Part shown: in pieces, positions 8,930-40,362 of the stretch | Layout: every line of letters starts with the position of its first letter | Numbering within the stretch: position 1 is the stretch's first letter | Assembly: GCA_965231005.1 (NCBI GenBank) | Contig: OZ246405.1 | Span: 610,709-674,708 of the forward strand | Reading direction: 5' to 3' | Length of the DNA stretch: 64,000 nt | From: an uncultured Gammaproteobacteria bacterium | GTDB taxonomy: Bacteria > Patescibacteriota > Patescibacteriia > Magasanikbacterales > UBA922 | The notes under the pieces: generated by a model | What the model saw: the letters and a program-made list of their open reading frames with translations, nothing else | What the model was told of the DNA's origin: nothing | The model's database searches: none | Translations under genes and position numbers: made by a program

Positions 8930-9048
8930 TTAAAAGTGATGTTTGTAGAACACCACCGGAGCGTCACGTAAAATCCCGACGTTGTCGGGATCACATGACG
9001 AATCGGTGAAGTTCCAATCGTGCCATTTTCACAGAGATTTGTATCTTA

Positions 9049-9068
9049 CCTGCCTGCCGGCAGGCAGG
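9049..9068. repeat. perfect 20-nt palindrome CCTGCCTGCCGGCAGGCAGG (terminator-like hairpin after smpB)
   Basis: The sequence is self-complementary and sits 12 nt downstream of the smpB stop. The 16-nt core CCTGCCTGCCGGCAGG recurs at 34777-34792. Confidence 0.7.
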
Positions 9069-9079
9069 TGTCTTTCTAT

Positions 9080-11418: not shown

Positions 11419-11636
11419 CAATTAACAACTAACAATTATCAATTACCAACTTAGTATAGGGTGTTTTTGGCAGAAAGGAATTAGTTATTAGTTACTAGTT
11501 ACTAGTTATTAGCTAACTAAGTCTAGATCTTTCTTGTATTGACTATTAACTATTAGCTAATAGCTAGTAATACCATTCTCAATATAAAGAGTCTTTCTGT
11601 ACTATTTTGCTAATTGTTAATTGCTAATTGTTAATT
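11419..11636. repeat. ~218-bp AT-rich intergenic element, copy B (inverted relative to copy A at 3691-3906)
   Basis: It aligns end to end with the reverse complement of 3691-3906. Example: CTTAGTATAGGGTGTTTTTGGCAGAAAGGAATTAGTTATTAG here versus CTTAGTATAGGGTGATTTTGGTAGAAAGAAATTAGTTATTAG there. It fills the whole spacer up to the ATG at 11637. Confidence 0.85.
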
Positions 11637-17000: not shown

Positions 17001-17332
17001 TTGTTGGAATTCGAGGAGTTCAATTGGATTCGTATCTCAGAGGAAAGGGGATAGATATGTCACTTCCTGAGGTGAGAGAACAATTTGAAAAAGTAGTCAC
17101 ACAGCACTATGATACTGTTCAAACATTTGAAAAGGGGATTATGCGTGGAAATACTATGAATACGCTAGAGAAGAAAATGAGAGAAATTATGCTTGGTTCA
17201 GAAGCTCTTAGCACAGATACTGATTTGTCTCGTTTTACTGGTTGGTTTGAAAGGGAAGTCCTTCCTCTATTCAAAAAGGCTGTTCATGCTGCTGAAGTCC
17301 GAAAGAGTAAGGCTGCTTTTCCACTAGAATAA
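14084..17332 (+). CDS. large (about 1080 aa) coiled-coil/membrane-associated hypothetical protein
   Basis: Long ORF with charged Lys/Glu-rich coiled-coil stretches and central hydrophobic segments (WWAMAPAATLGLVARHAALS, FLAAGGAAALGTYALAEHGI). No NTPase or enzymatic motif was recognised. The start at 14084 or 14057 is ambiguous. Confidence 0.65.
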   Translation: MSPDANNVVELFPENEYGPDRGPVSDEQKEANRKAKGELGDILRKLEDLQSLRDKVETTLIEDVEALIQHINNKEYHDEVVVQVKELREKLDEINKKMEGVSKSIETREVRKQRESFEFTVSDVLDVVGRDKLRNIMVHFPDMNAGERQQVFTGLFDHLDEEQSKNLNRVRRKKAFEVFEPFFQTAKQKKALDEAKRAPNDQVRVKLFEAAGLIEDETDRENVLHTLSEISFSDDDNKAFIKTWKDNMALQALDSVEFYEYGAAEQKVLELAAIEAKKGKKKKKYKQTSLKQKFVNLGKGIKNLAVAAGQHVKKEWWAMAPAATLGLVARHAALSTTPDFYAKALELTGDESQSAFLAAGGAAALGTYALAEHGIRALKTRLSVKPDKAFAEVSGLAKDMYVSDQKKGGEWVLAGHISHILQHGGKEGQQTHERHVEVLKVIAKELRKNGEKVEANSEFMKAALLAIDVKDRKRGGQSILSEKYQSLGFIRRTIAEVRDQFYTKKWKDIGVGGSALQWMSGAALHTLHKGLIGGTIAWPMQRPEIFGLFSERLAARFGAAAVPGWLQELATKRGEQKEDKWEIERKRLEKAVSPEAYGKLTLYKATKVSEDQLLDIQREITELNYYISTWSDVSSLSSDGNKLKRAGRKITTNVRKQFQSDLLDVWPRYKTAALGLHQEYERLYEEKRQELIEKQLAKVSKSLSEAGKTKQREKMQEALPEKLKKREKKRNKNIPKKTFDMKLPDEKTPTERLLGNSKVEVADRRKTLVQGLKMGMLAAAFGKAFDMARVHFPHIFDRPPEVIPHGAFAGWDEDPFIDHDRYDQYGNEIFPDDAYPSQGEEASPPAETPQEPTVPKRDRTKEEIRRLAGLGGRSGRVEDIPVQGEDALVTEKDEVAKGTGLDSSKDGSAALIGEPKEPTWEEKIAERGSPAESLSKTEQYMKYLMREEPKKYSKADFKLFQHMQSILEKQNEFVGIRGVQLDSYLRGKGIDMSLPEVREQFEKVVTQHYDTVQTFEKGIMRGNTMNTLEKKMREIMLGSEALSTDTDLSRFTGWFEREVLPLFKKAVHAAEVRKSKAAFPLE

Positions 17333-17539
17333 AAAATTAGCCCTTTGACTCGTCACTTCGTTCCTCGCTAAGGACAAGCAAAAAACAAAGAACAAAAAAC
17401 AAGTATTTTAATTGGTATTATTCTTGAAAAAAATTACTAAAATGGCTTAAATAAGTCATTTTTTTCATTTCTTTATGTTTCTTACCTTTTTACTTTTTAG
17501 CATTTTCGCTTTTTTGCATTTTTAGTGATTGCAAAGTAC

Positions 17540-17568
17540 TTGACAAAATGGTAAAAATATGGTACAGT
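17540..17568 (+). promoter_or_regulatory. sigma70-type promoter (TTGACA-N17-TGgTACAGT) of the first G+C-rich operon
   Basis: TTGACA at 17540-17545 and TACAGT at 17563-17568, with a preceding TG. The 34-nt block 17537-17570 is 32/34 identical to 21721-21754. Confidence 0.65.
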
Positions 17569-17791
17569 TTGCTGTTTACAGTGCCCATATTGTGTATGAG
17601 CAGCATTTGTTGTGATCTCTTAGATTGTGACAGTTGCCAAGCAATATTTTTTCGCTGAAGTAAGCTAAAAAGTGCTGTAAAAAAATGCACATTACAAATA
17701 CATGATGCACCTATGTGTATTGGATTAGTCAATCAATGGATATTCTTTTTGCTGTCTTTTGATTGACTAACCCAATCAAGGAGGTGCAGTC

Positions 17792-19882
17792 ATGTCACCA
17801 GATCAGAAAAAACCTGATGGTGGTGCACATGGTAGTGCACCGCCGAAACGATCAACACTCGAACTTCATGCTGACAAGATCGTCAGCTTGGTCCAACAAG
17901 ACGGGCCAGAGGAGAACCCCATGACCGACAAGAAGACTGATACAACAACGCCGGGTCATGAGGTTCATGATTCGAATTCTGAAACCCCACCCCCGCTGCC
18001 AAGTGTGCTCGACTCGCTTGCTCCTGAGGACATAGCAAGAATAATAAGAGGAGAATCACAACCACTGCGAAGTGAATTGGTGCGATGTCCGAACTGTGGT
18101 GCTGTCTACCCTATGGATCAGGGAAAGGTCCAGGGTGGTTCTGAAAAGGATCAACAGTGTGTGTTGTGCCTTCATGAATTCACCCTCGGTGATGACAATG
18201 AAGCACAAGCAACAGCACAGTCTGAAACCCCACCACCAGTGCCTTCTTCGAACGTTCCGGCGGACAATGAGAAAATCCAATGTCCGAACTGCAAAACCAC
18301 ATTTCGGTCCATTGAAATCCTGCTTTGGGATCGCAATTACAAGTACGTCGTCTGCAGCCACGGATTCACCATCGATAACGACACTGAAGCACAAGCAACA
18401 GCACAGTCTGAAACCCCACCCCCACCCCCACTTCCGCTTCTCATTGGGGACAATGCCCCAGGTGGGAAGAACGTGACTTGCCCAAACTGCGATAAGGTCT
18501 ATTCACTGGATCCAGCTGACTTTGTAGGTGGTTTCCCGAACGTCTTTCAGTGCGCCCTATGCAATCATTGCTTCACTATCGATGATGAAACTGACGCACA
18601 GGATGACACACCACCTGCAATTCCGACCGCGCAGCAGCGTGCAGACAGAACAGGACTGACTGAGCCGTACAAGCCACTCGCCGACATCAAAGATCCAGAT
18701 GCTGATACGTCCACGATTCGTGAAACCATGCCAAGTCACCCGGGCCAAGCTCGTCGCGCTGAAAGCGATCACTACACGCAGGATGAACTTCCTCGCGTGG
18801 AAGATGAACGTGAAACACGGCAAGACCTTCCTGTTGTCACTGGCGATGATCAAGACACCAAGCCTGACATGGACGTTGTCAAAGCCGAAGACCTCGATGA
18901 AGACGATGCTGCTGAACTGGAAAAGGATGATGGCAAGGAAGCTGAAGAGCTGCCCCCGCCGATTTCAAGTCCCATGTTCAGTCCGGAACTGCGCAAACCA
19001 AACCCTGGTTTTCAGCTGCCTCCTCATCTCGAAGAGGTCGTTCGACTCTCTGCTGCTTCAACTCCCGATTCTCTTGCTTCCGGCGATGACGATCCATTCG
19101 GCGACGGCGGAGATCCCTTTGCTGGCCCAGGCACGAATCCCTTTGCTGTTGACGCAGATGATCCCTTCGGTGCTGAAGTTCCGTTCGGTCCAGGAGATGA
19201 TCTTGGGATGAAGGACGAAGACTACGGTGGTCCGAATGATTCTGTCGACGATGGTGATGAATTGCCTCCTGTCATGCCGGCTGATTCCAGTAAGGCGGCT
19301 CCCAAGCCGTCGCTGATTACTGGTTCCAGACCAAGGTTTCGTCCGACTGGACCTGTGCCTTCGGTTCACGATCAAGACGACAAAAGTGGCCCCCCGCCTC
19401 CTCGTCGTCAAGATCATCGAAAGACAATCCGAGTTCCACGTCATCGGCCGACTGCTCGTCCAGTGCCACCACCACCTCCTGGCCCGGCTCCCATTCGAAC
19501 GCCGACGCCTAGTGGTGGTTCACCCATTCCTGCATCTGCACCTGTTTCTACTCCGCCTCCGGCTGCGAGTACAACAGGACCGTCTGCTGCACCAACCCAG
19601 GCTGCTGCGGCTCCGCCCGCACAGTCACAACCGCCGGCTCCAACTGGGCCAGTGGTTGGTCCGACGGCATCAAGTGGCAGTGCTACTACACCGGTCAAGA
19701 CCAACAAGACCGTTGTGTGGATCATCGCCATTCTGATTGTTGCATGCCTGGCTCTCAATGCCTTTAGCGTGTGGCAAAGCAGAAACATCAGAAAGAACGT
19801 CATCGCGGTTCTGAAACATCGCGCTGGCATCCAAAAGGTCATTCAGGCTCCAATGCCGAAGACCAAGGGGGAAGAGAAATGA
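17792..19882 (+). CDS. G+C-rich tail-anchored protein with three MJ0042-like zinc-ribbon repeats and a long Pro/Asp-rich disordered region
   Basis: ATG at 17792 is preceded by AAGGAGGTG. There are three CPNC...(C/H)xxC units (aa 99-270). Long acidic and Pro-rich low-complexity stretches follow. A single C-terminal TM helix is VVWIIAILIVACLALNAFSVW. The stop overlaps the next start (ATGA at 19879-19882). Confidence 0.75.
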   Translation: MSPDQKKPDGGAHGSAPPKRSTLELHADKIVSLVQQDGPEENPMTDKKTDTTTPGHEVHDSNSETPPPLPSVLDSLAPEDIARIIRGESQPLRSELVRCPNCGAVYPMDQGKVQGGSEKDQQCVLCLHEFTLGDDNEAQATAQSETPPPVPSSNVPADNEKIQCPNCKTTFRSIEILLWDRNYKYVVCSHGFTIDNDTEAQATAQSETPPPPPLPLLIGDNAPGGKNVTCPNCDKVYSLDPADFVGGFPNVFQCALCNHCFTIDDETDAQDDTPPAIPTAQQRADRTGLTEPYKPLADIKDPDADTSTIRETMPSHPGQARRAESDHYTQDELPRVEDERETRQDLPVVTGDDQDTKPDMDVVKAEDLDEDDAAELEKDDGKEAEELPPPISSPMFSPELRKPNPGFQLPPHLEEVVRLSAASTPDSLASGDDDPFGDGGDPFAGPGTNPFAVDADDPFGAEVPFGPGDDLGMKDEDYGGPNDSVDDGDELPPVMPADSSKAAPKPSLITGSRPRFRPTGPVPSVHDQDDKSGPPPPRRQDHRKTIRVPRHRPTARPVPPPPPGPAPIRTPTPSGGSPIPASAPVSTPPPAASTTGPSAAPTQAAAAPPAQSQPPAPTGPVVGPTASSGSATTPVKTNKTVVWIIAILIVACLALNAFSVWQSRNIRKNVIAVLKHRAGIQKVIQAPMPKTKGEEK

Positions 19883-21558
19883 ATACGTTTATCAAGGTGC
19901 TACTCGCCATTCTCATCGGGGTTGTGGTCGCTGTGTCCGGCTACTTCGCATGGGAAACCATGAACACGAACAAGGCGCTCCTCGCTGAACTGAACAAGAC
20001 CGACAACGGTGCCCAGGAGGACACCAAGGTCAAGCCGGCGCCGAAGAAGTCGGCTGTCAAGAAAGCTGACAAGGCTTCCACGTCCCAGGCCAAGACGGCC
20101 GGCGACAAGAACGACCCCAAGAAGGTCGAGGAAGCTGCGAAGGCTGCCGAAGCCAAGAAGAAGGCCGAGGCCGAAGCTGCTGCCAAGGCTGCTGAAGCGA
20201 AGAAGAAGGCTGACGAAGCTCGCAACGACTGGGATGAAATCAACTCCCGTGGCGACGACCAACTCAGAGCTGAGAAGTTCGACGAAGCGTTCAAGACCTT
20301 CAAATCCTTGATCGGACACGAGCATCAGAATCATGGACTGGCTTACTACAACATCGCCTGCCTGTTCTCGGTGCAGTCTGTGTCAGACAAGCTCAAGGGC
20401 AAGAAGAAGGCGATTCGCAAGAGCAAGAAGCAAGCCCTCCACTACCTGGCTCAGGCCTGGGTAGCCGGCTACGACGACCTCGAATGGATGGAGAAAGACG
20501 AGGATCTCGATTCGATCCGCAAGACCCGCGGCTACAAAGAGATCAAGCGTCTGGCAGTGGAAAAGGGACTGGTTCGGCTCCCTGCGCCGGCCACCGAAGA
20601 CGTCGCCAAGAAGGCCAAGGATGAGCAGAAGGAACCCACGCCCAAGCTGACCGGCATCCACGCCCTGCGTGCCATGCCGATCAAGGGAGTTGCCGATTCT
20701 GACGAAGCCAGCAAGGCTGACAAGGACGCCAAGCGCATCGCCAACGCCAACGCCAAGAAGGTCAAGGGCAAGAAGGTTCGCAAAGGCAGCCGCGGCATCT
20801 CGTTCCTGGCCAAGGCTCGAGCCGAAGCCAAGCGGATGTACGCCAAGCTCCACAAGGACCAGAAGGCTCGTCGTGCAGCGCTCAACCGTGCGATCGCCCG
20901 ACTCAAGCGTGGCTACAAGCGCAAGAGCGATCTTGACAAGCAGGACGTTGACGACGAGATCGCAGAGCTCAAGCGAAAGGAGCAGGAACAGTCCGACGAC
21001 GAGGATCGGAAAGCCAAGGAAGAGGCCGAAAGGATGCTCGCCGACGGCAAGACCCAAGACGAGGTCAAGGCTATGTACGATGCTCTGGAGCGCAAGCAAC
21101 AGGCTCGTCGTGCAGCGCTCCTCAGCAAGATCGCGGACGAGCAAAGGCAGGCACGACAGCAGCGTCAGGATGATGCAGTCGACCTTCGCGATGAGATCGC
21201 CAAGCTGCGCGAAGCCGACAAAAAGGCTGACACGCAGTCCGCGGCAGCTGCCAAGGATCACGTGCAAGCCTTGTTCGACAAAGCGCAAGCCGCGACCAAC
21301 CGCGCCAACGCAAAGCGCGCGCGTCAACAGCGTCAGCGTGCGGCAGCGCCCTCGCGTCCGAGCTCGCCGCCCAGCCGTCCGGCTTCGGGTGGTTCGTCCA
21401 GCCTCGCACATGCGCCTGCGGCAGTTTCCAGCTGTCCGTATGGTGGAGACGAGGCCAACTGCGTCAAGAAGACGGTCGCGTACTTGACCAAGTTCGGTAC
21501 GCCCCTGGCCGATGCCAAGGGGAGTGCCAAGGCCAAGTGCAGCGCGCGCTGTCTGTAG
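19879..21558 (+). CDS. G+C-rich N-terminally anchored Lys/Ala-rich coiled-coil protein with a TPR-like segment and a C-terminal 4-Cys module
   Basis: Start ATG 19879 (MNTFIKVLLAILIGVVVAVSGYF is a TM anchor). A TPR-like block is YYNIACLFS...ALHYLAQAWVAGYDDLEWMEKDEDLDSIR. The C-terminus is CPYGGDEANCVKKTVAYLTKFGTPLADAKGSAKAKCSARCL. Confidence 0.72.
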   Translation: MNTFIKVLLAILIGVVVAVSGYFAWETMNTNKALLAELNKTDNGAQEDTKVKPAPKKSAVKKADKASTSQAKTAGDKNDPKKVEEAAKAAEAKKKAEAEAAAKAAEAKKKADEARNDWDEINSRGDDQLRAEKFDEAFKTFKSLIGHEHQNHGLAYYNIACLFSVQSVSDKLKGKKKAIRKSKKQALHYLAQAWVAGYDDLEWMEKDEDLDSIRKTRGYKEIKRLAVEKGLVRLPAPATEDVAKKAKDEQKEPTPKLTGIHALRAMPIKGVADSDEASKADKDAKRIANANAKKVKGKKVRKGSRGISFLAKARAEAKRMYAKLHKDQKARRAALNRAIARLKRGYKRKSDLDKQDVDDEIAELKRKEQEQSDDEDRKAKEEAERMLADGKTQDEVKAMYDALERKQQARRAALLSKIADEQRQARQQRQDDAVDLRDEIAKLREADKKADTQSAAAAKDHVQALFDKAQAATNRANAKRARQQRQRAAAPSRPSSPPSRPASGGSSSLAHAPAAVSSCPYGGDEANCVKKTVAYLTKFGTPLADAKGSAKAKCSARCL

Positions 21559-21578
21559 TCTGATCTGGTGAGAACCTG

Positions 21579-21660
21579 GCTTCCCGGTGCTCGTACGTTT
21601 ATTCGTACTTGCATCGGGAAGCCTCCTCACTTTCTTCTTTTTCTTGAAAAGAGGGGAAAG
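21579..21660 (+). terminator. 3' cassette module: G+C-rich hairpin followed by a CT/AG hairpin
   Basis: GGCTTCCCGGTGC...GCATCGGGAAGCC spans 21579-21623. CTTTCTTCTTTTTCTTGAAAAGAGGGGAAAG spans 21631-21660. Confidence 0.5.
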
Positions 21661-21723
21661 CAGGGAAAATACCTTATTTAAGCCAAAAAAGATAAGTTTT
21701 TATGGTCTATAAAGCCTAAATAC

Positions 21724-21752
21724 TTGACAAAATGGTCAAAATATGGTATAGT
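21724..21752 (+). promoter_or_regulatory. sigma70-type promoter (TTGACA-N17-TGgTATAGT), near-identical copy of the 17540 promoter
   Basis: TTGACA at 21724-21729 and TATAGT at 21747-21752, with an extended -10 TG. Confidence 0.65.
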
Positions 21753-21943
21753 TTCTGGTCAAAATTGATAAAATATATACCCTTATCTATTGGCGTGCCA
21801 GTGCATAATCCATGCAATATGCAGTGCGCGCGAGTGTGATAAGGTACAGAAAATGTACATCGTACATTCTTTGTGTGTCACACCGCTTTCCAGACGTTTT
21901 AACGTCATCCAACAGGTTCATTACATTACTACATCACTACAAC

Positions 21944-22086
21944 TGTTCGATCGGTAAACAAGTTCATAATATTTGTGTACTGCTTTACCGGTCGAACATT
22001 TCACATCGCCTTTCTGACCGGGGGCACAGTTAATTCCAAGGTACGTTACCAAGGAACAAATTGACTGCGCCTGGTTTTCTGGGCGA
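21944..22086 (+). promoter_or_regulatory. conserved structured 5' leader element, copy 1 (143 nt)
   Basis: It aligns along its length with 24885-25027. The long stem is GTTCGATCGGTAAA / TTTACCGGTCGAAC. Further hairpins have conserved stems and variable loops. It lies 27 nt upstream of the ATG at 22113. Confidence 0.6.
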
Positions 22087-22112
22087 CGTGAAACAACAGA
22101 AGGAGGTGCGCA

Positions 22113-23402
22113 ATGGCGTACGCCGTTCGAAAAACCCGATCCGGGGGTGCCGGACAATACGTTTCAGTTTTTTCCGACCGTGCTGCGGTTCTCCGAAAAA
22201 TCGCGCGAGGGATGATCCGCAAGGGTGCGTTCATTCGCGTGGTTCCGGACACGGCTGCTACCAACGATGGCGAGAAGGCCGCAGTCAAGGCTGATCTGGA
22301 TAACGCGGATTTCGTGCTCATCGAGAACCATCCGCATTTCGCTGGCATCAACTTCCCGGCGCCTGCTGACGCTTCGGCTGCTGCGACTGCGGATGCTGCG
22401 GCCACCCGTGCGAATGCCAATGCTGCTGCGGCCAATGTGACCGTTGCGGAGGCTACTGCTGCTCAGGCTCAAACCGAAGCCGACGCTGCTAACGCTCGTG
22501 CCAACGCTGCTGATGCCGCCACTGCTCAGGCCAACGCCGAGGCTACTGCTGCTCAGGCTCGTGTCGACGTTGCCAACGCTGCTGCTGCTCAGGCCAACGC
22601 CGAGGCTACTGCTGCTCAGGCTGCTGGGGATGCTGACGCTCAAGTTGCTGCTGCAGAGGCTGTTGCGGAGGCTGCTGCTGCTCAGGCCGATGCTGCTCAG
22701 GCACATGCCGACGCGGTTCAGGCTGCTGCGGATGCTGCTCAGGCTGCTGCGGATGCTGCTGACGCTGCTACCCAGGCTGGTGCTGCTGCCGGTCAGGCTC
22801 TGATCGCTACCAGTCAAGCTCGGGATGCTGCTGCTGAGGCTGAGGCTGAGGCGCTCGAGGCACAGGCCGATGCGGACGATGCTGCTGCCTTTGCTCAGGC
22901 TCAGGCCGACGAGCGGGCCAATCGCCGTTCGGTTCGGTTCGTCGCGTGGCTGCGTCGCAACTGGAAGAAGGTTCTGCTGGCTCTGCTGGTTCTCCTCCTT
23001 CTCGGTTGCGTGTGGTTCTTCTGGAGCAACATCAAGGCCCTGGTCACGGGGGGTGGTGGTTCGCCGCCGCCTTCGGTGGTGAACCCGCCGACCCCACCGA
23101 CGCCGCCCGTTCCGACGCCGCCCGTTCCGCCGCCGCCGGCTGCGACTCCGGTCGTTCCGCCGCCGACGGTGACGCCTCCGCCACCGCCCGCGACTCCGCC
23201 GGTTTCGCCGACGGTCACGCCTCCGCCGACCCCGCCGACTTCGGGGGGCACGGCAGCGCCGACTGGACAGCCTGGCTGTCCGTTCGGTGTGGGGTACACG
23301 GACTGTTACACCAAGACGGTGGCCTACCTGGTCAGCCATGGTGTGGCGACTTCGGACGCGCAGGACAAGGCGCGCGAGAAGTGCGGACCGCGTTGCAGGT
23401 GA
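22113..23402 (+). CDS. G+C-rich Ala-rich repeat protein with a central TM helix, a Pro/Thr-rich linker and a C-terminal 4-Cys module
   Basis: ATG is preceded by AAGGAGGTG. Repeats of the AAAQANAEATAAQA type occur. TM helix WKKVLLALLVLLLLGCVWFFW. A PPTPPTPPVPTPPVPPPP linker follows. The C-terminus is CPFGVGYTDCYTKTVAYLVSHGVATSDAQDKAREKCGPRCR. Confidence 0.72.
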   Translation: MAYAVRKTRSGGAGQYVSVFSDRAAVLRKIARGMIRKGAFIRVVPDTAATNDGEKAAVKADLDNADFVLIENHPHFAGINFPAPADASAAATADAAATRANANAAAANVTVAEATAAQAQTEADAANARANAADAATAQANAEATAAQARVDVANAAAAQANAEATAAQAAGDADAQVAAAEAVAEAAAAQADAAQAHADAVQAAADAAQAAADAADAATQAGAAAGQALIATSQARDAAAEAEAEALEAQADADDAAAFAQAQADERANRRSVRFVAWLRRNWKKVLLALLVLLLLGCVWFFWSNIKALVTGGGGSPPPSVVNPPTPPTPPVPTPPVPPPPAATPVVPPPTVTPPPPPATPPVSPTVTPPPTPPTSGGTAAPTGQPGCPFGVGYTDCYTKTVAYLVSHGVATSDAQDKAREKCGPRCR

Positions 23403-23410
23403 TGTAGCCT

Positions 23411-23500
23411 GTTGGAGGGAAGCCCGCTACCGGCGCATGCATTCGTGTGTGTGTCCGGTAGCCCTCCAACCGCTTTCTTTTATAAAAGAGAAAGAGGTTG
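23411..23500 (+). terminator. 3' cassette module: G+C-rich hairpin plus an overlapping CT/AG hairpin
   Basis: GTTGGAGGG (23411-23419) pairs with CCCTCCAAC (23462-23470). CCAACCGCTTTCTTTT...AAAAGAGAAAGAGGTTGG (23465-23500) reuses the 3' arm, so the two structures are mutually exclusive. Confidence 0.5.
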
Positions 23501-23824
23501 GGGGAATACAAAATTAGAAATTGGAAATTAGGGATTAAGTGTATTGACATATTGAGTAATAGAGAAAAGAAATTTTCTTTAGTACTCAGGGTGTCATGTA
23601 GACATTATTGTAAAATTACAATGTGTCTCGTGTCCTGATTAGACAGGTTCATTATAATTTAGTTGAAGAATAACTATCTGGTGGGTAAAAAGATAATATA
23701 CATATGTTACTTTTTTTCTCACCAGATAGTGGCACGTGCCGCTTGTTTCTTCGTCGCCCTTGGGGCATTTCACAAATGGCCCCATCGGTGAGGAGGGGCA
23801 AGGCAACAACAACAGGAGGACGCG

Positions 23825-24724
23825 ATGAACATCCGTCTCGTTTCGTTCATGATCGTCGCATCGGTGACGGTCGGTTTCATTTCCATCAACTCATTCGCGC
23901 AGGCACCGGCCGACTACCCAGCCGTTCGCGACGATGCGCACAAGGGTGCTTCGCTCGCCGAGTCCAACGCCAAGCGCCTGACCGCCCTGGAGAAGCGGAT
24001 CAAGCGGCTCAAGCGCGCCAAGGCTGCGGCCAAGGCCAAGCACACGGCCAACCCGACCCCCGCCAACAACGTCGCTCTGAAGGCCGCGGTCCGCGCGCTC
24101 GACGAGGCCAAGAAGGCAGGTCTGTCCATGTGCGCCCTGAAGACTGGCGAGGATTTCCGGCACTGCATCGACGTCGTGGAAGGCAAGGTGTTCGAGGTGG
24201 AGAAGGACTCCATCCGGATGGCCGCGCTGCTCGCAGTCGGCTGCATCGTGAAGGAGAACAAGTCCACAGATCCTTCCAAGGGTTCGAAAAAGGGCGCATC
24301 CATCACGACCACCGAGCTCGTCTGCGACAAGGACAAGGCCAAGAAGGCGCCGCGCTGCATCCGGTTCAAGCGCTTCAGCAAGCACGCGCACACCTACTTC
24401 GACGTCGGCGGTGACAACTGCAAGGAAGAAGACAGCAACCCGCTGCCCAAGAAGCCGGCGACTCCGCCCAAGCCCAAGGCCGAACCGTGGTCCAAGGGCA
24501 AGCGTTTGCTGGCCAGCGCTGGCATGTGCCTGCTGGCCGGTGGTGTGCTCGCTGTTCCTGGTTACGTCATCGGCGACGCCATCGAGGGCGGTCACTGGGA
24601 GACCAATCCGGAGACCGGCAACGACGACTGGTATGCGCCCAAGGGTCCGCTCGGTGCTGGCATCGGCGGTCTGACCGGCTGCCTCAGCGCGTTCGCGGGC
24701 ACATGGAGTGCGACGAGCGAGTAG
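23825..24724 (+). CDS. G+C-rich secreted/membrane protein, function unknown
   Basis: ATG is preceded by AGGAGG. Signal peptide MNIRLVSFMIVASVTVGFISINSFAQA. Lys/Ala-rich helix. Several Cys residues. C-terminal hydrophobic Gly-rich segments (LLASAGMCLLAGGVLAVPGYVIG; GAGIGGLTGCLSAFAG). Confidence 0.68.
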   Translation: MNIRLVSFMIVASVTVGFISINSFAQAPADYPAVRDDAHKGASLAESNAKRLTALEKRIKRLKRAKAAAKAKHTANPTPANNVALKAAVRALDEAKKAGLSMCALKTGEDFRHCIDVVEGKVFEVEKDSIRMAALLAVGCIVKENKSTDPSKGSKKGASITTTELVCDKDKAKKAPRCIRFKRFSKHAHTYFDVGGDNCKEEDSNPLPKKPATPPKPKAEPWSKGKRLLASAGMCLLAGGVLAVPGYVIGDAIEGGHWETNPETGNDDWYAPKGPLGAGIGGLTGCLSAFAGTWSATSE

Positions 24725-24748
24725 CCTTTCTTCAACTGCTGAATCTGT

Positions 24749-24826
24749 CGGGGGTTGGTAGCATGTTCATTCATGTCTGTCAACCCCCGTCGGAATATCT
24801 TTCTCTTTGTAAAAAGGGAGAGATGA
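24749..24826 (+). terminator. 3' cassette module: G+C-rich hairpin followed by a CT/AG hairpin
   Basis: CGGGGGTTG (24749-24757) pairs with CAACCCCCG (24781-24789). ATCTTTCTCTTTGTAAAAAGGGAGAGAT spans about 24797-24826. Confidence 0.5.
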
Positions 24827-24884
24827 ACGATTATTGTTCATTACAATTGAGAAACTACTACAGAAACATCTTGAATACCTTTTG

Positions 24885-25027
24885 TGTTCGATCGGTAAAC
24901 AAGTACATAACATTTGTGTACTGCTTTACCGGTCGGACATTTCCACATCGCCTTTTTGACCGGGGGCACAGTTAATCCGTGGCGTGTTGCCGCGGACCAA
25001 ATTGACTGCGCCTGAGAAATTGGGCGA
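24885..25027 (+). promoter_or_regulatory. conserved structured 5' leader element, copy 2 (143 nt)
   Basis: Homologous to 21944-22086. The stem substitution A to G keeps pairing as G-U. One hairpin is replaced by CCGTGGC-GTGTT-GCCGCGG. It lies 44 nt upstream of the ATG at 25072. Confidence 0.6.
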
Positions 25028-25071
25028 TTGTGGAATGATTCGGGCGAGACCCGAGAAAAGAGAGGTAACTC

Positions 25072-28000
25072 ATGAACAGCAAGCTCAACACGATTTCCGT
25101 TTGTTTCGTGGCGCTGATGATCGTTTTCGGGTGCAGCCCGGACGCGAGCTACAAGCCCAACGACCCCAAGAACCCCAACCCGGCCCGCAAGGCCGATGCC
25201 AACAACAGCGACACCAGCAGCGCGGATGCGGGTTCGAGCGCGGATACCGGTCAGCCGACCGATCCGTGCGCCGATCCCAAGTTCTGCAACGATGGCAAGG
25301 TCTGCACGGCCGACACCTGCAAGGACGGCAAGTGCAAGCACACCATCGACGCGACGCTCTGTGATGACGGCAACCCCTGCACACATGACCTGTGTGACGA
25401 CCTGGGGATCTGTGTGAACAAGGCTCACGAAGGTTCGTGCCAGGACGGGAATGCCTGTACTGTGGGTGATCATTGCAAGAATGGCACCTGCCAGTCGGGA
25501 AAGAACATGCCCTGTCCCAACGAGAACTCGTGTGTCATCGCAACCTGCAACCCGAAAGAAGGCAAGTGCAACTACGAGCCCAAGAGCGGTGACTGCAACG
25601 ACGGCAACAAGTGCACGGTTGGCGATTTCTGCATCAACCAGAAGTGCAAGAGCGGTTTCAAGAAGTTGGACTGTGATGACAAGAACGTGTGCACGACTGA
25701 CAGCTGCAATCCAGAAGACGGTTGTGTTCACAAGCCGATCGACCTTCCCTGCAGCGACAACAGCTCGTGTACCATCTCGGATAAGTGCAAGGACGGAAAA
25801 TGCGTGGGCCAGGTTGTCAACTGCGACGACAAGAACCCGTGCACGACCGACTCGTGCGATCCGGCGGCGCCCCCGGGCAAGGCATGCAAGCACGTGAACA
25901 ACACCAGCGAGTGCGACGACGGCAACAAGTGCACGTCCGGCGACGTTTGCCAGGATGGTCAGTGTAAGAAGGGAACCACGTCGGTCGATTGCGACGACGG
26001 GAACCCGTGCACTACCAATTCCTGCGACGCCAAGGTCGGCTGCCAGAAGCTCAACAACAACAACTCGTGCGACGACGGCAACAACTGCACCATCAATGAC
26101 AAGTGCTTTAACGGCAAGTGCAACTCCACTACCAAGAAGTGTGGCGACAGCAACAAGTGCGTCACCAACACGTGCGACCAGGCAACTGGCGCGTGTGTGA
26201 AAAAGGAGCTGTGCGACGACGGCAAGGCCTGCACCGAAAACACGTGCGACATCAACACCGGCAAGTGCGAAAACCCTGACAAGAAGTGCGACGACGGCAA
26301 GGCCTGCACCAAGGATAGCTGCAACACCACCACGGGCAAGTGCGAGTACGAGATGATCGTTGGTGCGAACTGCTTCTGCAAGTTCGACTCCAACTGTGAC
26401 GACGGAAACGAGTGCACTGTCAGCGCATGCGATAAGGCGACTGGCAAATGCGCGCTCGCGAAGAAGTACAGCGGGACCTCGTGTGACGACGGGAACCCGT
26501 GCACCACCTCGGACAAGTGCGACCCCAAGACCGGCAAGTGCTCGTCGGCAAAGGCCACGGCCTGCGACGACGGGAACCCCTGCACGGACGACTCCTGCGA
26601 CCCCACGGTCGTTGGCGGTTGTGTGGCGGTGAAGAACAACAAGCTGTGTGACGACGGTGACGCGTGCACCAAGGGTGATATCTGCCTGGACGGCGCGTGT
26701 AACCCCGGCAAGGCCCCGGTCTGCGACGACGGCAACATCTGCACGGATGACAGCTGTGACTCGAAGCTCGGATGCAAGAACACGGCCAACTCGGCCAGCT
26801 GCTCGGATGGGAGCGCCTGCACCTCAAACGACAAGTGCGAGGGCGGGAGCTGCAAGAGCGTTGCGGTGAAATGCGACGACTCCAACCCCTGTACCGACGA
26901 TAGCTGCGACGCGAAGGTCGGCTGCAAGTACGCCAAGAACACCAAGCCGTGTAACGACGGTGACGAGTGTACCATCAGCGAGGTGTGCAAAGACGGCAAG
27001 TGTGGTTCTGGCAAGGCCAAGTCGTGCGACGACAACAAGAAGTGTACCATCGACTCGTGCGACAAGGACAAGGGCTGCCAGCACAAGCAGATTTCCTCGG
27101 CGACCTGCTGCGCTTCGGACGCTGAGTGCGACGATAAAAAGCCGTGCACGGTGGACAAGTGCGATCCGAAGGAAGGTTGCAAGAACACCAAGAAGCTCTG
27201 CTCGGACAACAACCAGTGCACCGACGACGTGTGTGATCCCCAGTCTGGAGATTGCAAGCACACGAAGTTCAGTGGACCGGCCTGCGACGACGGCAACAGT
27301 TGTACCAAATCCGAGAAGTGCGAAAAGGGCAAGTGCGAAGCTGGCTTTACCATCAAGTGCAACGACAACAAACCCTGCACCAAGGATACGTGCGACACCA
27401 AGGGCGGATGCGTCTTCACCAAGACCGTGGATCCCTGCGACGACGGGGACGCGTGTACGAATGGAGACAAGTGCGCCAATGGCGAGTGCGTGTCTGGCAA
27501 GCAGATCGTCTGCGACGACAACAAGGTCTGCACGACCGACAGCTGTGACTCCAAGAAGGGGTGCGTGTTCGCGAACAATTCGGATGCCTGTACGGACGGA
27601 AACGCCTGTACACCGAATGACGTCTGCAAGGACGGCAAGTGCTCGTCGCAGCCTGAGAACTGTGACGACGCGAACGCGTGTACCAACGACAGTTGTGACA
27701 AGAGCAAGGGCTGCAAGCACATCAACAACACCAAGGTCTGCAACGACGGCAACAAGTGTACGGACAACGGAGTCTGCAGTGGCGGCGCCTGCAAGCCGGG
27801 CAAAGCCATCAACTGCGACGACGGCAAGAAGTGCACGACGGATAGCTGTGACCCGACCACGGGCAAGTGCAAGAACGTGGCGCTGGTGTGCGATGACGAC
27901 GCCTGTACGGATGGCGATGGCAAGTGTGACGAGAGCACGGGCAAGTGTGCAGTGGGTCTTCCCAAGAACTGCACTGACACCGACGTGTGTACCAAGAATT

Positions 28001-28593
28001 TCTGCTCGGAAGGAACCTGCAAGGTCTCTCCGAACTGCGATGACGGGAACGCATGCACGGCTGATAGCTGTGACCCAAAGAAGCCCGAGAAGGATCAGTG
28101 TTCGCACGTCCCGATCTCGGGTTGCAAGTCGGTCGAGGTCAAGCTCTCCGTGGTTTTTTCTGAGATGTTCAAGATGGAAGCCGCACCCAAGGGTGGCAAC
28201 TACGTCCGGTTCTTCGTCAAGAAGTGCGAGGCCAAGGCTGCTGACGGCTCGTCCGTCATGTTGCTCAAGCCTGGCTCCTTCTACGGAGGCGCTGAGATCA
28301 AGAACAGCTCGAAGCTCGAGTACACCAATCCTGCAAAGGTCCAGGACTTCGTGCAGATCCCGAAGAATGCCTGCTGCATCAACATCGTAGGGTACCAAAG
28401 CAGTAAGATCTCCAATCCTTACGGGGACTCGAAGATCTGGGCTTTCAGTACGACTCCCAATACCAAGACCCACAACATGGAGCCGGTCCTCACGACCAGC
28501 AATGGACTGACGTACAAGTTCACGTTGAAAGACGTCCATGACAACGGTGTGGGGGGATACGACGCGTGCAACAGCGAAGTCATCTCCAAGTAG
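25072..28593 (+). CDS. G+C-rich giant Cys-rich repeat lipoprotein (CDDGNxCTxDxC-type repeats, roughly forty copies) with a distinct C-terminal domain
   Basis: The N-terminus MNSKLNTISVCFVALMIVFGC is a probable lipoprotein signal. From about aa 66 to 985 there are ~24-aa units in two alternating flavours: CDDxNxCTxDxCDxxxGCxH and CxDGNxCTxxDxCxxGxC. The last ~180 aa are non-repetitive. Confidence 0.85.
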   Translation: MNSKLNTISVCFVALMIVFGCSPDASYKPNDPKNPNPARKADANNSDTSSADAGSSADTGQPTDPCADPKFCNDGKVCTADTCKDGKCKHTIDATLCDDGNPCTHDLCDDLGICVNKAHEGSCQDGNACTVGDHCKNGTCQSGKNMPCPNENSCVIATCNPKEGKCNYEPKSGDCNDGNKCTVGDFCINQKCKSGFKKLDCDDKNVCTTDSCNPEDGCVHKPIDLPCSDNSSCTISDKCKDGKCVGQVVNCDDKNPCTTDSCDPAAPPGKACKHVNNTSECDDGNKCTSGDVCQDGQCKKGTTSVDCDDGNPCTTNSCDAKVGCQKLNNNNSCDDGNNCTINDKCFNGKCNSTTKKCGDSNKCVTNTCDQATGACVKKELCDDGKACTENTCDINTGKCENPDKKCDDGKACTKDSCNTTTGKCEYEMIVGANCFCKFDSNCDDGNECTVSACDKATGKCALAKKYSGTSCDDGNPCTTSDKCDPKTGKCSSAKATACDDGNPCTDDSCDPTVVGGCVAVKNNKLCDDGDACTKGDICLDGACNPGKAPVCDDGNICTDDSCDSKLGCKNTANSASCSDGSACTSNDKCEGGSCKSVAVKCDDSNPCTDDSCDAKVGCKYAKNTKPCNDGDECTISEVCKDGKCGSGKAKSCDDNKKCTIDSCDKDKGCQHKQISSATCCASDAECDDKKPCTVDKCDPKEGCKNTKKLCSDNNQCTDDVCDPQSGDCKHTKFSGPACDDGNSCTKSEKCEKGKCEAGFTIKCNDNKPCTKDTCDTKGGCVFTKTVDPCDDGDACTNGDKCANGECVSGKQIVCDDNKVCTTDSCDSKKGCVFANNSDACTDGNACTPNDVCKDGKCSSQPENCDDANACTNDSCDKSKGCKHINNTKVCNDGNKCTDNGVCSGGACKPGKAINCDDGKKCTTDSCDPTTGKCKNVALVCDDDACTDGDGKCDESTGKCAVGLPKNCTDTDVCTKNFCSEGTCKVSPNCDDGNACTADSCDPKKPEKDQCSHVPISGCKSVEVKLSVVFSEMFKMEAAPKGGNYVRFFVKKCEAKAADGSSVMLLKPGSFYGGAEIKNSSKLEYTNPAKVQDFVQIPKNACCINIVGYQSSKISNPYGDSKIWAFSTTPNTKTHNMEPVLTTSNGLTYKFTLKDVHDNGVGGYDACNSEVISK

Positions 28594-28640
28594 TTCTCAA
28601 GAAAATGATCACTCCCTCCTGCGCAATGTGATCTGCCGTG

Positions 28641-28712
28641 GACGGGCTCGAGCCTGAAACTCGAGTCCGTCCCGGCCGCGCAACTCCGAATATGATTCAC
28701 GTCTATTCGGAG
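28641..28712 (+). terminator. two G+C-rich hairpins closing the island
   Basis: GACGGGCTCGAG-CCTGAAA-CTCGAGTCCGTC spans 28641-28671. CTCCGAATA-...-TATTCGGAG spans 28684-28712. Confidence 0.45.
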
Positions 28713-28774
28713 CTCCCCAAGGTTCATTTTTCCTCAGAAAAGTGGACACTTGTAAGAGTTAAACATAGGTACAG

Positions 28775-28802
28775 GAAACAAGATATATATCTTGTTTTTT
28801 GT
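28775..28802 (+). terminator. rho-independent terminator (host style)
   Basis: AAACAAGATATATATCTTGTTTTTTG: an AT-rich perfect stem followed by a T-run. Confidence 0.7.
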
Positions 28803-28831
28803 TTGAATAATAGTGTTTTTTCAAGTATACT
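28803..28831 (+). promoter_or_regulatory. sigma70-type promoter (TTGAAT-N17-TATACT), probably giving a leaderless or near-leaderless mRNA
   Basis: The -35 is at 28803-28808 and the -10 at 28826-28831. The ATG at 28838 lies only 7 nt after the -10 box. Confidence 0.55.
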
Positions 28832-28837
28832 GTGAAT

Positions 28838-30271
28838 ATGAAATCGCCAAATTTCTTATCTTATTTTTCACACAACCAGCTTAAAAAAACACATGTACTT
28901 GGTGTCTCTTTTATTATTATAATAATGACAGCCGCCCTTTTACTATTTTGGGATATATATCCTCTAGCAATTATATTCCTCATAGGATTAGTAGGAATAT
29001 CCACATTTGCTCTAAAACCAGAGTGGGGATTGTACAGTGTTCTCTTTCTTGGACTATTTCATGGATGGGTCATAGATTTTTCTACATATCAGAGCGTCAA
29101 ACATATTCCATATCTTCCTCAGATCAATGCTCCTTTGGTTGATTTCTTTGCGATTGTTTTATTCATTGGAGTTTTTCTTTTATATTTATTTCAATTTCAA
29201 AAATTAGCTATTTTGAAACGTCTAAGACACATCAAAACAGGAATAGTTATATATATTCTTTTTCTTATCACAGCACTTGCAGCTGTTTTTTTTGCATTTA
29301 ATAATTTTTTTACACCAAGTATAAAATATTTTATGCGACCGCTGGTGTTTGTGTTTGTTTTGTATTGGCTCTTGCCAATTATTCTTATTAGAACAAAAAA
29401 ACAATTTTCATCTGTAATGAAACTATGGTTCTGGACTGGTATTGGCATTGCAATATTTGGTTTGATATCTTTATTTGTTCTTGGGCAAACAGGATGGATT
29501 CGTGTTGTTCCATTTGGCATAAAAGGGTTTGCCCCACTTGGATACAATCATAATCAACTTGCAGAAGTATTAATTTCTTTATTTCCTGCTGGACTATTTC
29601 TTTTCTTACGAAGTTTTTCAAAAGAAGAAAAAAGATTGTATGGTTTTGGAACATTTTTTATTATTATCATTGCACTCCTAACACTTTCTCGGGCTGCTTG
29701 GGCTGCAGTACTTGTACAAGTAGGCTTTCTCTTTTGGTTTTTCCGTTCAGCAGTGCGTCCATTCATGTATAAATTTCAAAAGATAACCACGCTATTATTG
29801 ATAGCAATTATTCCAGCTATTCTTTACATGAGTGTTTTTCTTGGATCGTCCATTGTAAAAAGTTCAACAAATGCCCGAGTGGAAGCAACAAAAATCGCAT
29901 TATTTTATACTGTTCGTTCTCCAGTCGTTGGATATGGTCCTGGTATGTTTGGCTATGTTATGGATGACACGTTTTTGTACACGCTCGAATTTGGAGAGTC
30001 GCTTGATGCACATGGGTTTATTCAAAAAGTCATGTTAGAAGAAGGATTTCTTGGCTTGCTGTTCTTTGTTGGTTTTTTGGGTTGGATATTGTGGTATATA
30101 TATCAGGCAAGAGAACATGGCATGCAAAGAGATCTTGTTGAGGTATTATTTGTCATGGCAATAGGAGCAATTATTTTTCAACTATTTAATACGTCCTATT
30201 TTAATTCTGTAATGTGGTTGCCACTTGGGGTGGCCACTGCTGGAACGCTTCTTTTAAAAAATGATTCCTAG
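28838..30271 (+). CDS. O-antigen ligase/polymerase (Wzy_C) family membrane protein
   Basis: About 10-12 TM helices. It carries a Wzy_C-type loop motif (ALLTLSRAAWAAVLVQ). Confidence 0.75.
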   Translation: MKSPNFLSYFSHNQLKKTHVLGVSFIIIIMTAALLLFWDIYPLAIIFLIGLVGISTFALKPEWGLYSVLFLGLFHGWVIDFSTYQSVKHIPYLPQINAPLVDFFAIVLFIGVFLLYLFQFQKLAILKRLRHIKTGIVIYILFLITALAAVFFAFNNFFTPSIKYFMRPLVFVFVLYWLLPIILIRTKKQFSSVMKLWFWTGIGIAIFGLISLFVLGQTGWIRVVPFGIKGFAPLGYNHNQLAEVLISLFPAGLFLFLRSFSKEEKRLYGFGTFFIIIIALLTLSRAAWAAVLVQVGFLFWFFRSAVRPFMYKFQKITTLLLIAIIPAILYMSVFLGSSIVKSSTNARVEATKIALFYTVRSPVVGYGPGMFGYVMDDTFLYTLEFGESLDAHGFIQKVMLEEGFLGLLFFVGFLGWILWYIYQAREHGMQRDLVEVLFVMAIGAIIFQLFNTSYFNSVMWLPLGVATAGTLLLKNDS

Positions 30272-34624: not shown

Positions 34625-34944
34625 TTTAATATTTATTATCTAATATTTATTATTTAATAGTTACGGTATAGATAGATTATAGTAATGTAGACAAAATCAA
34701 GCTATACCAAAAATTGATGAGTAAAAAAATTAAGACCGAAGTAAAATCATCAACCAAGCCATACTGTCATTGCGAGCCTGCCTGCCGGCAGGAAGCGAAT
34801 GAAGAGAGCGACGAAGCAATCTTTAGTGGTGATAAGATCGCAAGATTGCCGCGGTCGCCCGGACGGGCTCCCTTGCAACGACAGTAAAGGTTAGAAAATG
34901 CAATGCTAAAATTCTATATAATAGATATTAAATATTAGATAATA
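34625..34944. repeat. composite palindromic intergenic element (AT-rich inverted flanks around a 123-nt G+C-richer nested hairpin)
   Basis: The flanks TAATATTTATTATCTAATATTTATTATTTAATAG and CTATATAATAGATATTAAATATTAGATAATATA are inverted. In the core 34763-34885, ACTGTCATTGCGAG pairs with CTTGCAACGACAGT and GCGACGAAGCAATCT pairs with AGATTGCCGCGGTCGC. The core contains CCTGCCTGCCGGCAGG. Confidence 0.6.
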
Positions 34945-39910: not shown

Positions 39911-40362
39911 AATATACCAAATAAGCAGTAATTTGTCAAGGTAGTCATTATTCTCTTTTTTTGTGCCTTTTATCCTGATAAATGAGCATATTTGTATAGA
40001 CTAGTGTACACAAAATTTAGCATTCATATTTATTTATATTAAGGCAAAAACTTATAAAAAAGTATAGACTAGTCTATACAAATTTATCTCATTCTAAGGA
40101 CAGGAAGAGAGCAGCTACTTATTGATTTGAGCCTTTTTGCCTTTTCGCTTTTTTGCGTTTTCAGATATTGACTTTTTTGTAATAATAGTGTTAAATATTG
40201 CACGATTATGGGATATCTTGGTTGTTTTTTGTCTATGATTCTGTTATACTCTTCCCGTATAAAAAGATATCTCTATTGGTTTTAGTGGTATTTTCAGTTT
40301 TTGATCAATATAACTCTAAATTTCGCGGGTGTAACATTTTTGTTATTTGCTCGTCTTCTTAT

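Follow-up and report, generated by a model that had tools for sequence, protein, structure and literature searches.

Terminator-like hairpin pairs and paralogous leader modules as probable transcription-unit boundaries in a G+C-rich gene island

The 64,000-nucleotide stretch of contig OZ246405.1 analysed here (assembly GCA_965231005.1; positions 610,709 to 674,708; hereafter the window, with coordinates counted from its first letter) covers 64 kb of a 1.23 Mb genome and contains an island of five plus-strand genes, g1 to g5 (17792 to 28593), with a G+C content at third codon positions (GC3) of 0.45-0.84, as against 0.23-0.25 in native genes. Structured elements recur in the spacers that precede g1 (IG0), separate g2 from g3 (IG1), g3 from g4 (IG2) and g4 from g5 (IG3), and follow g5 (IG4). 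Judging from their sequence features, we propose, with a probability of roughly 0.55, that these recurrent boundaries mark where transcription units stop and start around acquired genes, with terminators followed by promoter/leader modules. Each unit would end in a G+C-rich stem-loop and a C-interrupted U-rich tract with the geometry of an intrinsic terminator, and this tract would double as the 5' arm of a second hairpin closed by a purine run. The next unit would open with a paralogous leader comprising a short motif, a long hairpin (P1), a second structured domain (P2), a ribosome-binding site and an ATG; the motif would act as a -10 region independent of a -35 region, and transcripts would begin just ahead of P1 as a protective 5' stem-loop. 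The structures with their statistics and sense-strand bias, the paralogy of the modules and the foreign composition of the genes are observed; termination, transcription start and the role of P1 are what we infer here.

The elements are ordinary in kind (terminators, promoters and structured leaders) and unusual in variant, and a new mechanism of gene capture is not supported. If the proposal is true, the locus illustrates how foreign genes of ~58-66% G+C come to be expressed in a tiny and probably symbiotic bacterium with an A+T-rich genome, every foreign frame being flanked by host-style regulatory pieces that are copies of one another. It would then be a concrete case of horizontally transferred genes undergoing regulatory "domestication", in a lineage whose promoters, terminators and mRNA leaders are almost unstudied.

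Hairpin pairs at the 3' ends of island units

All four island unit 3' ends (after g2, g3, g4 and g5) carry a G+C-rich hairpin followed directly by a hairpin with a pyrimidine arm and a purine arm (Y/R hairpin). The features of these 3' modules are as follows.

21567-21631, plus strand: IG1 terminator-like hairpin; core 21578-21623, outer stem GGUGAG/CUCACU, -41.6 kcal/mol as nascent RNA; UUCUUCUUUUUCUU directly after
21631-21666, plus strand: IG1 Y/R hairpin; 5' arm formed by the U-rich tract, 3' arm by AAAGAGGGGAAAG; stem of 14 with 3 G.U pairs
23406-23474, plus strand: IG2 terminator-like hairpin; GUUGGAGGG...CCCUCCAAC with inner CUACCGG stem, -38.7 kcal/mol as nascent RNA; UUUCUUUUAU after
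23462-23505, plus strand: IG2 Y/R hairpin; 23470-23497, core 23473-23495, stem of 11; the extended form re-uses CCCUCCAACC of the first hairpin
24744-24794, plus strand: IG3 terminator-like hairpin; CGGGGGUUGG...CAACCCCCG, then AAUAUCUUUCUCUUUGU
24796-24826, plus strand: IG3 Y/R hairpin; stem of 12, purine arm stopping 8 nt short of the motif
28635-28752, plus strand: IG4 3' module; G+C-rich hairpins 28635-28676 and 28684-28712, then Y/R-type hairpin 28718-28752 (core 28723-28746, stem of 9)
28776-28806, plus strand: native-type A+T-rich terminator; AACAAGATATATATCTTGTT and a T run, closing the island ahead of the g6 promoter

The G+C-rich hairpins placed by the initial annotation at 21579-21623, 23411-23470 and 24749-24789 fold as claimed and, with their outer stems, extend to 21567-21631, 23406-23474 and 24744-24794. 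They start 8-24 nt past the stop codons of g2, g3 and g4, with nascent-RNA energies of -32.5 to -41.6 kcal/mol, and so present the stable G+C-rich stem-loop shortly downstream of a stop codon that is expected of an intrinsic terminator. A terminator scan with a loop limit of 3-8 nt missed these hairpins because of that limit. Taken whole, the 3' modules (108-146 nt) have folding z-scores of -6.9 to -7.8, and none of 200 shuffles was equally stable. An RNA-seq study of 13 genomes (PMC8355165, Gupta and Pal 2021) found intrinsic terminators to consist most often of hairpin clusters, in which two or more hairpins lie within ~80 nt of the stop codon and less than 15 nt from one another. The first and second hairpins of IG1 to IG3, with gaps of 0-8 nt, fall into this group, and the 3' module is therefore ordinary in kind.

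A U-rich tract abuts the outer stem in IG1 (UUCUUCUUUUUCUU, 12/15 U) and IG2 (UUUCUUUUAU, 8/10 U), whereas in IG3 it starts 2 nt past the stem (AAUAUCUUUCUCUUU, 10/16 U) and in IG4 it lies 13 nt off. Since the first hairpins, taken with their outer stems, end right at the pyrimidine arm, that arm appears to be the U-rich tract of a terminator-shaped element, a point absent from the initial annotation. The second hairpins would look alike because each uses the U-rich tract as its 5' arm and a purine run as its 3' arm.

The polypyrimidine/polypurine hairpins reported in that annotation are real: when both strands of the window are scanned for the type, those of IG1, IG3 and IG2 rank first by stem length (14, 12 and 11). 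All others have stems of at most 9, with IG4, a weaker fourth case, tying for next at 9. Three stems of at least 11 bp were observed against 0.03 expected from 40 Markov shuffles. A Y/R hairpin is present at 4/4 island unit ends, whereas a separate one occurs at 0 of the ~20 native 3' ends that have intergenic space; these native ends mostly comprise single hairpins with clean T runs, and one native terminator only (42204-42258) has a Y/R-like inner stem. The mutually exclusive structures described at IG2 were likewise borne out, as the full-length minimum re-pairs CCCUCCAACC with GGUUGGGGG (-55.6 kcal/mol, versus -48.2 kcal/mol with the first stem forced). Two more hairpins lie further along this spacer (23546-23628), one with a purine-arm/pyrimidine-arm core, AGAAAAGAAATTTTCTTT, and the other a near-palindrome, TTGTAAAATTACAA, containing ATTACAAT, a partial echo of the motif.

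The structures are biased towards the sense strand. Folding favours the sense over the antisense RNA in 15 of 16 elements (sums of -465 versus -376 kcal/mol), with 41 G.U pairs in the sense and 13 in the antisense orientation, and the mean sense-antisense difference is -5.6 kcal/mol compared with -1.5 kcal/mol in composition-matched shuffles; native terminators have little strand bias in stability. That the stems depend on sense-strand G.U pairs points to selection on the sense transcript rather than on DNA cruciforms, and the bias, as modelled, argues for a function at the RNA level.

Compared with described intrinsic and hairpin-cluster terminators (PMC8355165), the island modules share the G+C-rich stem-loop less than 25 nt from the stop codon, a U-rich tract after it, abutting the stem in IG1 and IG2 only, and the second hairpin less than 15 nt away. 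They differ in that the second hairpin is built of the U-rich tract and a purine run, and so cannot exist in RNA released at that tract, in that the tracts are C-interrupted, and in that the arrangement is confined, within the window, to foreign genes. The clamped U-rich tract is the only unusual part of the 3' module, and we could not match a purine arm pairing with a terminator's U-rich tract to any described type. Our guess is that the purine arm locks the 3' region of read-through transcripts or insulates units from each other.

Shared motif, promoters and leader modules

The spacers contain promoters and structured leaders of ~170-350 nt. The motif forms the 5' edge of a paralogous leader module, which the initial annotation had not recognised; this module (~90-180 nt) comprises the motif, the long hairpin P1, the G+C-richer structured domain P2, a strong and partly sequestered GGAGG-type ribosome-binding site, and the ATG. 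The promoter and leader features are listed below.

17540-17568, plus strand: IG0 sigma-70 promoter of native type, TTGACA-17-TGgTACAGT; assigned to g1-g2
17687-17773, plus strand: possible diverged fourth leader module in IG0; GCACATTACAAAT (17687-17699), then a long hairpin (17722-17773) that immediately precedes the g1 ribosome-binding site
21724-21752, plus strand: IG1 sigma-70 promoter of native type, TTGACA-17-TGgTATAGT (11/12); ~160 nt upstream of the motif
21912-21927, plus strand: motif copy 1, ACAGGTTCATTACATT; left edge of the IG1 leader module
21944-22093, plus strand: IG1 leader; P1 21944-21998, P2 21999-22093, then ribosome-binding site GAAGGAGG and the g3 ATG at 22113; z -7.65
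23643-23658, plus strand: motif copy 2, ACAGGTTCATTATAAT, with a perfect TATAAT
23673-23824, plus strand: IG2 leader; P1 23673-23730, P2 23735-23824 including ribosome-binding site CAGGAGGA; z -6.5
24834-24847, plus strand: motif copy 3, TTGTTCATTACAAT
24884-25036, plus strand: IG3 leader; P1 24884-24940, P2 ~24941-25036; z -9.4

The motif core GTTCATTAYAWT occurs exactly three times in the window, always on the plus strand and once each in IG1, IG2 and IG3 (21916, 23647 and 24836), against 0.11 copies expected; none of 100 shuffles reached three, for a pattern that was defined post hoc. The initial annotation had placed one copy at each junction, which holds for the three internal spacers but not for the end of the island, where the bases taken for a truncated copy, AAGGTTCATTTT at 28719-28730, form the 5' arm of the Y/R hairpin in IG4; GGTTCATT itself is about as frequent as chance predicts (4 copies against 3.3 expected). 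The copies in IG1 and IG3, parts of one duplicated segment, do not count as independent, and the IG2 match is modest by sequence (p ~0.02 for the 12-mer, 0.03-0.05 for 14/16). The IG2 copy is convincing only because it shares its position before the conserved hairpin P1: the combined pattern of motif, gap and P1 gives 3 matches versus 0.00 expected.

The motif lies 166-224 nt upstream of the start codon and 16-38 nt upstream of P1, and its spacing to P1 is kept (16 and 14 nt to the pattern anchor). Between IG2 and IG1/IG3 it is the sole long unchanged stretch, while the adjacent hairpin has drifted with compensatory changes, a signature of constraint on the motif sequence itself; the 12 nt immediately downstream of GTTCATTAYAWT differ in all three copies. 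A covariance model of the module (R1) detected the three copies and one weak hit in IG0, with no further strong copy in the window. The IG0 look-alike (CATTACAAAT plus a hairpin) scored 15.9 bits, with an E-value of 0.49 across the window and of 0.0036 when IG0 is taken by itself.

Strong native promoters in the window follow the pattern CTTGACA-17-TGnTAYAnT, with further examples of the type at 4484 and, on the minus strand, at 7209, 7056 and 36220. The promoter copies of IG0 and IG1, likewise overlooked in the initial annotation, share ~38 nt (BLAST core 17537-17570 versus 21721-21754, 34 nt, 94% identity). On the plus strand of IG2 and IG3, a promoter scan found no promoter-like site besides the motif. 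The three copies end in TACATT (IG1), TATAAT (IG2) and TACAAT (IG3), all with the second-position A and sixth-position T expected of a -10 hexamer; none reached the scan threshold of 9 of 12. Hexamer quality is best where a canonical promoter is lacking (6/6 in IG2, 5/6 in IG3) and poorer beside one (4/6 in IG1; TACAAA in the IG0 look-alike). The promoter -10 reading put forward in the initial annotation is therefore plausible, given the TATAAT-like hexamers, their position and the want of any other promoter in IG2 and IG3, but it is unproven, and conserved -35 or TG elements are lacking. With moderate confidence, we suggest that the motif is a -35-independent -10 region with six conserved upstream bases, a candidate promoter class. 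It resembles extended -10 sigma-70 promoters in its TATAAT-like hexamers, the conserved bases directly upstream and the absence of a conserved -35; it differs in that these upstream bases read GTTCAT instead of the TGn that the host's own strong promoters use.

Several other assignments of the motif were rejected. An extracytoplasmic function (ECF) sigma promoter did not fit, because GTTCA is wrongly oriented for a GAAC-type -35 and the ECF gene in the window has no motif upstream; readings as a sigma-54 promoter, a T-loop or tRNA-like element and a dif-like site were dismissed on inspection. Two promoters elsewhere in the window have their own peculiarities: g6, a Wzy_C family gene and the first native gene past the island, looks leaderless (TTGAAT-17-TATACT at 28803-28831, ATG at 28838), and at 4474-4496 the -35 TTGACA of the following promoter lies in the loop of the terminator hairpin (AAAAACCCCTTGACAAAAGGGGTTTTTT) that belongs to gene 3904-4434.

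Within the leader modules, the IG1 and IG3 blocks (21912-22073 and 24834-25014) are duplicates, 94% identical over ~130 nt apart from indels of 20 nt and 1 nt, with compensatory changes in an inner hairpin (22033-22055; match region including 24885-25014). P1 keeps 17 lower-stem pairs in the three copies, 6 of which have changed on both sides. In IG3, UACCUUUU (24876-24883) pairs over 8 nt with the g5 ribosome-binding site (25056-25063). In IG0, 17707-17718 is complementary over 12-13 nt to 17781-17794, which holds the g1 ribosome-binding site and start codon. These pairings suggest that the leader fold may hold translation of g1 and g5 in check. A leader peptide in IG3 (a 49-codon open reading frame (ORF) from 24824) was considered and rejected, since the IG1 counterpart lacks a start codon and is interrupted by a stop in frame, and the copies differ by the 1-nt and 20-nt indels.

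Folding z-scores computed from mononucleotide shuffles show more structure in the island spacers than in any others of the window (-8.5 to -12.8, versus 0 to -8.3 for native spacers); some native leaders are hairpin-rich too, for example 42200-42536. Stem-loops at the 5' terminus stabilise mRNAs in the E. coli ompA leader and the B. subtilis aprE and ermC leaders. The island leaders are similar in that a long, stable hairpin, P1, would lie ~8-30 nt downstream of the presumed 5' end and that the leader itself is long; they differ in that this 5' end is predicted only and in that another large structured domain masks part of the ribosome-binding site. Tandem surface-protein genes that share near-identical 5' non-coding regions are found in the Mycoplasma variable surface lipoprotein loci vlp, vsp and vsa, to which the island compares in its small genome, its tandem surface-protein cluster and its shared 5' regions before unrelated or variable coding regions. 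Unlike those loci, the island has no site-specific recombinase, inverted gene orientation, shared signal-peptide sequence or homopolymer switch, and only two of its leaders are near-identical.

Searches for relatives of the leader returned none. Against Rfam 15 at the gathering score, only a transfer-messenger RNA (tmRNA) and one tRNA passed in the 64 kb, and at E-values up to 5 there was no credible match in the spacers of 17300-28900. A DNA pattern search for the leader and for motif-P1 gave 0 matches in each of the genome, metagenome and viral contig collections (genome_contigs, metagenome_contigs and viral_contigs), and a search of genome_contigs for synteny around the native neighbour g0 found no relative. 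Covariation is therefore limited to paralogues.

Points against the proposal and competing explanations

Several observations weigh against reading the boundaries as terminators followed by promoter/leader modules. No relative with the module exists in the collections searched, so that the case is built on four paralogous copies from one genome. The island U-rich tracts are C-interrupted, unlike the clean T runs of native terminators, and that of IG4 begins 13 nt from its stem. The proposal does not account for the purine arm, which RNA terminated at the U-rich tract would not contain. The motif copies have no conserved -35 (TTAACG, GTGTCC and AGAGAT at 17 nt) and also lack the TG extension present in every strong native promoter of the window. 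Finally, IG1 and IG0 already have a canonical promoter 120-160 nt upstream and do not require a second.

The boundaries might instead punctuate RNA processing: g3, g4 and g5 would be co-transcribed from the canonical IG1 promoter through leaky hairpins, and an endoribonuclease guided by P1 would cut the A+U-rich stretch upstream, the motif being the single-stranded cleavage region. The downstream mRNA would thereby gain a protective 5' hairpin and the upstream mRNA protective 3' hairpins. The lack of a canonical promoter in IG2 and IG3, the imperfect U-rich tracts and the sense-RNA bias of the structures all fit this account, and there are precedents: S. aureus RNase Y, guided by a 24-bp helix in saePQRS, cuts 6 nt upstream and stabilises the downstream fragment (PMC5449607), and intercistronic stem-loops are reported to set subunit ratios in the cip-cel operon (PMC10311766). 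As in these systems, long intergenic helices in a surface-protein cluster could give stable downstream fragments. In the RNase Y precedent, however, cutting takes place 6 nt from the helix whatever the sequence there (PMC5449607), whereas the island has a conserved motif of 12-16 nt, not predicted by such a process, which ends 16-38 nt from P1 and terminates in good -10 hexamers. We consider processing unlikely. We give a somewhat smaller chance to the motif being functionless by itself, as the best-preserved end of a leader segment duplicated recently between IG1 and IG3 (94%) and earlier for IG2, with the Y/R hairpins as ordinary second hairpins of terminator clusters. Consistent with this, the IG1 and IG3 copies lie within one duplicated block, the IG1-IG2 and IG2-IG3 sequence matches reach only p 0.02-0.05, native intergenic elements have also been copied (3769-3878 versus 11447-11559, at 90%), and two-hairpin clusters are common (PMC8355165). 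Yet the motif alone stayed unchanged in IG2 relative to IG1/IG3 as the hairpin drifted with compensatory changes, and it kept its spacing to P1.

A recombination or junction site, with GGTTCATTAYAWT or the hairpins as the core for serial cassette insertion, was the other option in the initial annotation, and we find it improbable. Similarity among the three leader modules does begin exactly at the left edge of the motif, regulatory modules have clearly been copied between unrelated genes, and the GC3 spread of 0.45-0.84 fits separate acquisitions. Against these stand the lack of a recombinase, an attC core or a second arm in the window: no integrase, transposase or Xer gene was found in ~47 ORFs scanned, the motif is absent from both outer island borders and from a second G+C-rich islet (ORF 4596-5423), and one half only is conserved. 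Nor does the motif mark composition shifts; it lies inside A+T-rich spacers ~80-250 nt away from them, except in the compressed spacer IG3, where it is ~45 nt from the 3' shift. The island resembles an integron in that unrelated genes of foreign appearance stand in an array on one strand, with an imperfect palindrome, different in each case, behind every gene. It differs in that none of the ORFs in the 64 kb encodes an IntI recombinase domain and that RYYYAAC...GTTRRRY cores are missing: the IG1 hairpin contains no AAC/GTT, and those of IG2 and IG3 read GTTGG...CCAAC, the reverse of the attC R''/R' pair. The island spacers are also long (347-554 nt) with promoters and leaders of their own, and their stems are RNA-biased, depending on sense-strand G.U pairs. 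Xer/dif sites such as pdif modules have two 11-bp arms and a 6-bp spacer, whereas the island copies share GTTCATTAYAWT only. By a similarly long shot, a candidate-phyla-radiation-like host (a lineage inferred from gene content) might wrap each foreign gene in a copy of a home-made "expression shell", made up of a promoter headed by the motif and a structured leader upstream of the gene and, downstream, a terminator with a purine arm clamping its U-rich tract. Such shells would spread by copy-and-paste or recombination with the breakpoint at the motif, forming a cassette system unrelated to integrons.

An assembly chimera of A+T-rich and G+C-rich organisms would account for the sharp alternation of composition and for one short European Nucleotide Archive (ENA) contig that ends at the hairpin modules. 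We consider it extremely improbable, given that contigs of two sequencing runs cover both sides at 100% identity, the proteins are also recorded on the 1.23 Mb NCBI contig, and the spacers bear native-type promoters. Two further candidates were rejected. Retro-transfer, with the purine run as a polypurine tract, is at odds with the lack of a reverse transcriptase and with g3 and g5 having identical leaders despite being unrelated genes. A repeat of the MITE or REP type does not fit either, as R1 finds three copies and one weak hit in 64 kb, and there are no terminal inverted repeats at 21912/22093.

Island genes and their genomic setting

The five genes of the island, all on the plus strand, are as follows.

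17792-19882, plus strand: g1; three MJ0042-type zinc ribbons, proline-rich, C-terminal membrane helix; GC3 0.45
19879-21558, plus strand: g2; N-terminal membrane helix, TPR end domain, C-terminal Cys motif; GC3 0.75
22113-23402, plus strand: g3; alanine-rich, membrane helix, proline-rich, C-terminal Cys motif as in g2
23825-24724, plus strand: g4; signal peptide, C-terminal hydrophobic segment; orphan
25072-28593, plus strand: g5; lipoprotein-type signal, at least 18 Dicty_CTDC cysteine-rich repeats, unique C-terminal domain

On these features, all five products are predicted envelope proteins. Genes g1 and g2 are coupled through an ATGA overlap. A protein search with g2 matched only itself, g3 belongs to no family in Pfam, and g4 has zero homologues among 5.8 billion proteins; a PHROGs search gave no phage signal bar a weak low-complexity match of g3. 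The g5 product matches PF00526 (1.5e-92), and its matches in the protein search are at the level of the repeats only. Its named relatives are mostly proteins of Myxococcales and of Deltaproteobacteria metagenome-assembled genomes, the best match lying on a contig of 70% G+C, and the family is at home in Myxococcales-like genomes of ~70% G+C. The island most likely consists of horizontally acquired, G+C-rich envelope-protein genes in a small A+T-rich genome. Although otherwise unrelated, g2 (21430-21558) and g3 (23270-23402) share the C-terminal pattern CP[YF]G..C..KTVAYL..G....A..A..KC..RC, with DNA identity there of ~60%; this Cys motif may be an unnamed small domain.

The window as a whole has ~35% G+C, and its gene content includes tmRNA, SmpB, IF3, L20, PPDK and many GT4 and Wzy_C genes. 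Also encoded is an ECF-type sigma factor with a DUF5667 partner (40198-42199, the DUF5667 gene being overlapped by the sigma factor gene); the GTTCAT motif was not found upstream of the sigma factor gene, which leaves no link to the island. Composition alternates sharply across the island, whose spacers IG0-IG4 have 32-45% G+C. The island proteins are also on record on the 1.23 Mb NCBI contig. Contigs of two ENA runs, 100% identical, cover the side from native sequence through g1, g2 and IG1 to g3 and the side from g5 through IG4 to native sequence; as both borders are covered independently, the mosaic is very unlikely to be a chimera. Exact look-ups returned solely 100% identical ENA contigs and no strain variation. 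An independent short ENA contig (window 23501-24722) breaks exactly at the IG2 and IG3 hairpin modules, probably because such structures are hard to sequence or assemble.

A second, separate G+C-rich islet lies at 4435-5534, with an ORF of 275 aa (4596-5423; GC3 0.66-0.80) that has no family in Pfam, NCBIfam or PHROGs. Upstream of the ORF is a native-type promoter, TTGACA-17-TGcTATACT (4484-4512), and downstream come a G+C-rich hairpin and a bidirectional terminator of canonical type; the islet lacks both the motif and any Y/R hairpin. Repeats also occur in native spacers. An A+T-rich palindromic intergenic element is present in two inverted copies (3769-3878 and 11447-11559; 90% identity over 113 nt), so that native spacers, too, have been copied in this genome. 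A G+C-rich palindrome, CCTGCCTGCCGGCAGGCAGG, occurs in two native spacers (9048-9069 and 34777-34792), its second copy, inside 34762-34886, sitting in a larger inverted repeat, CTGTCATTGCGAG...CTTGCAACGACAG.

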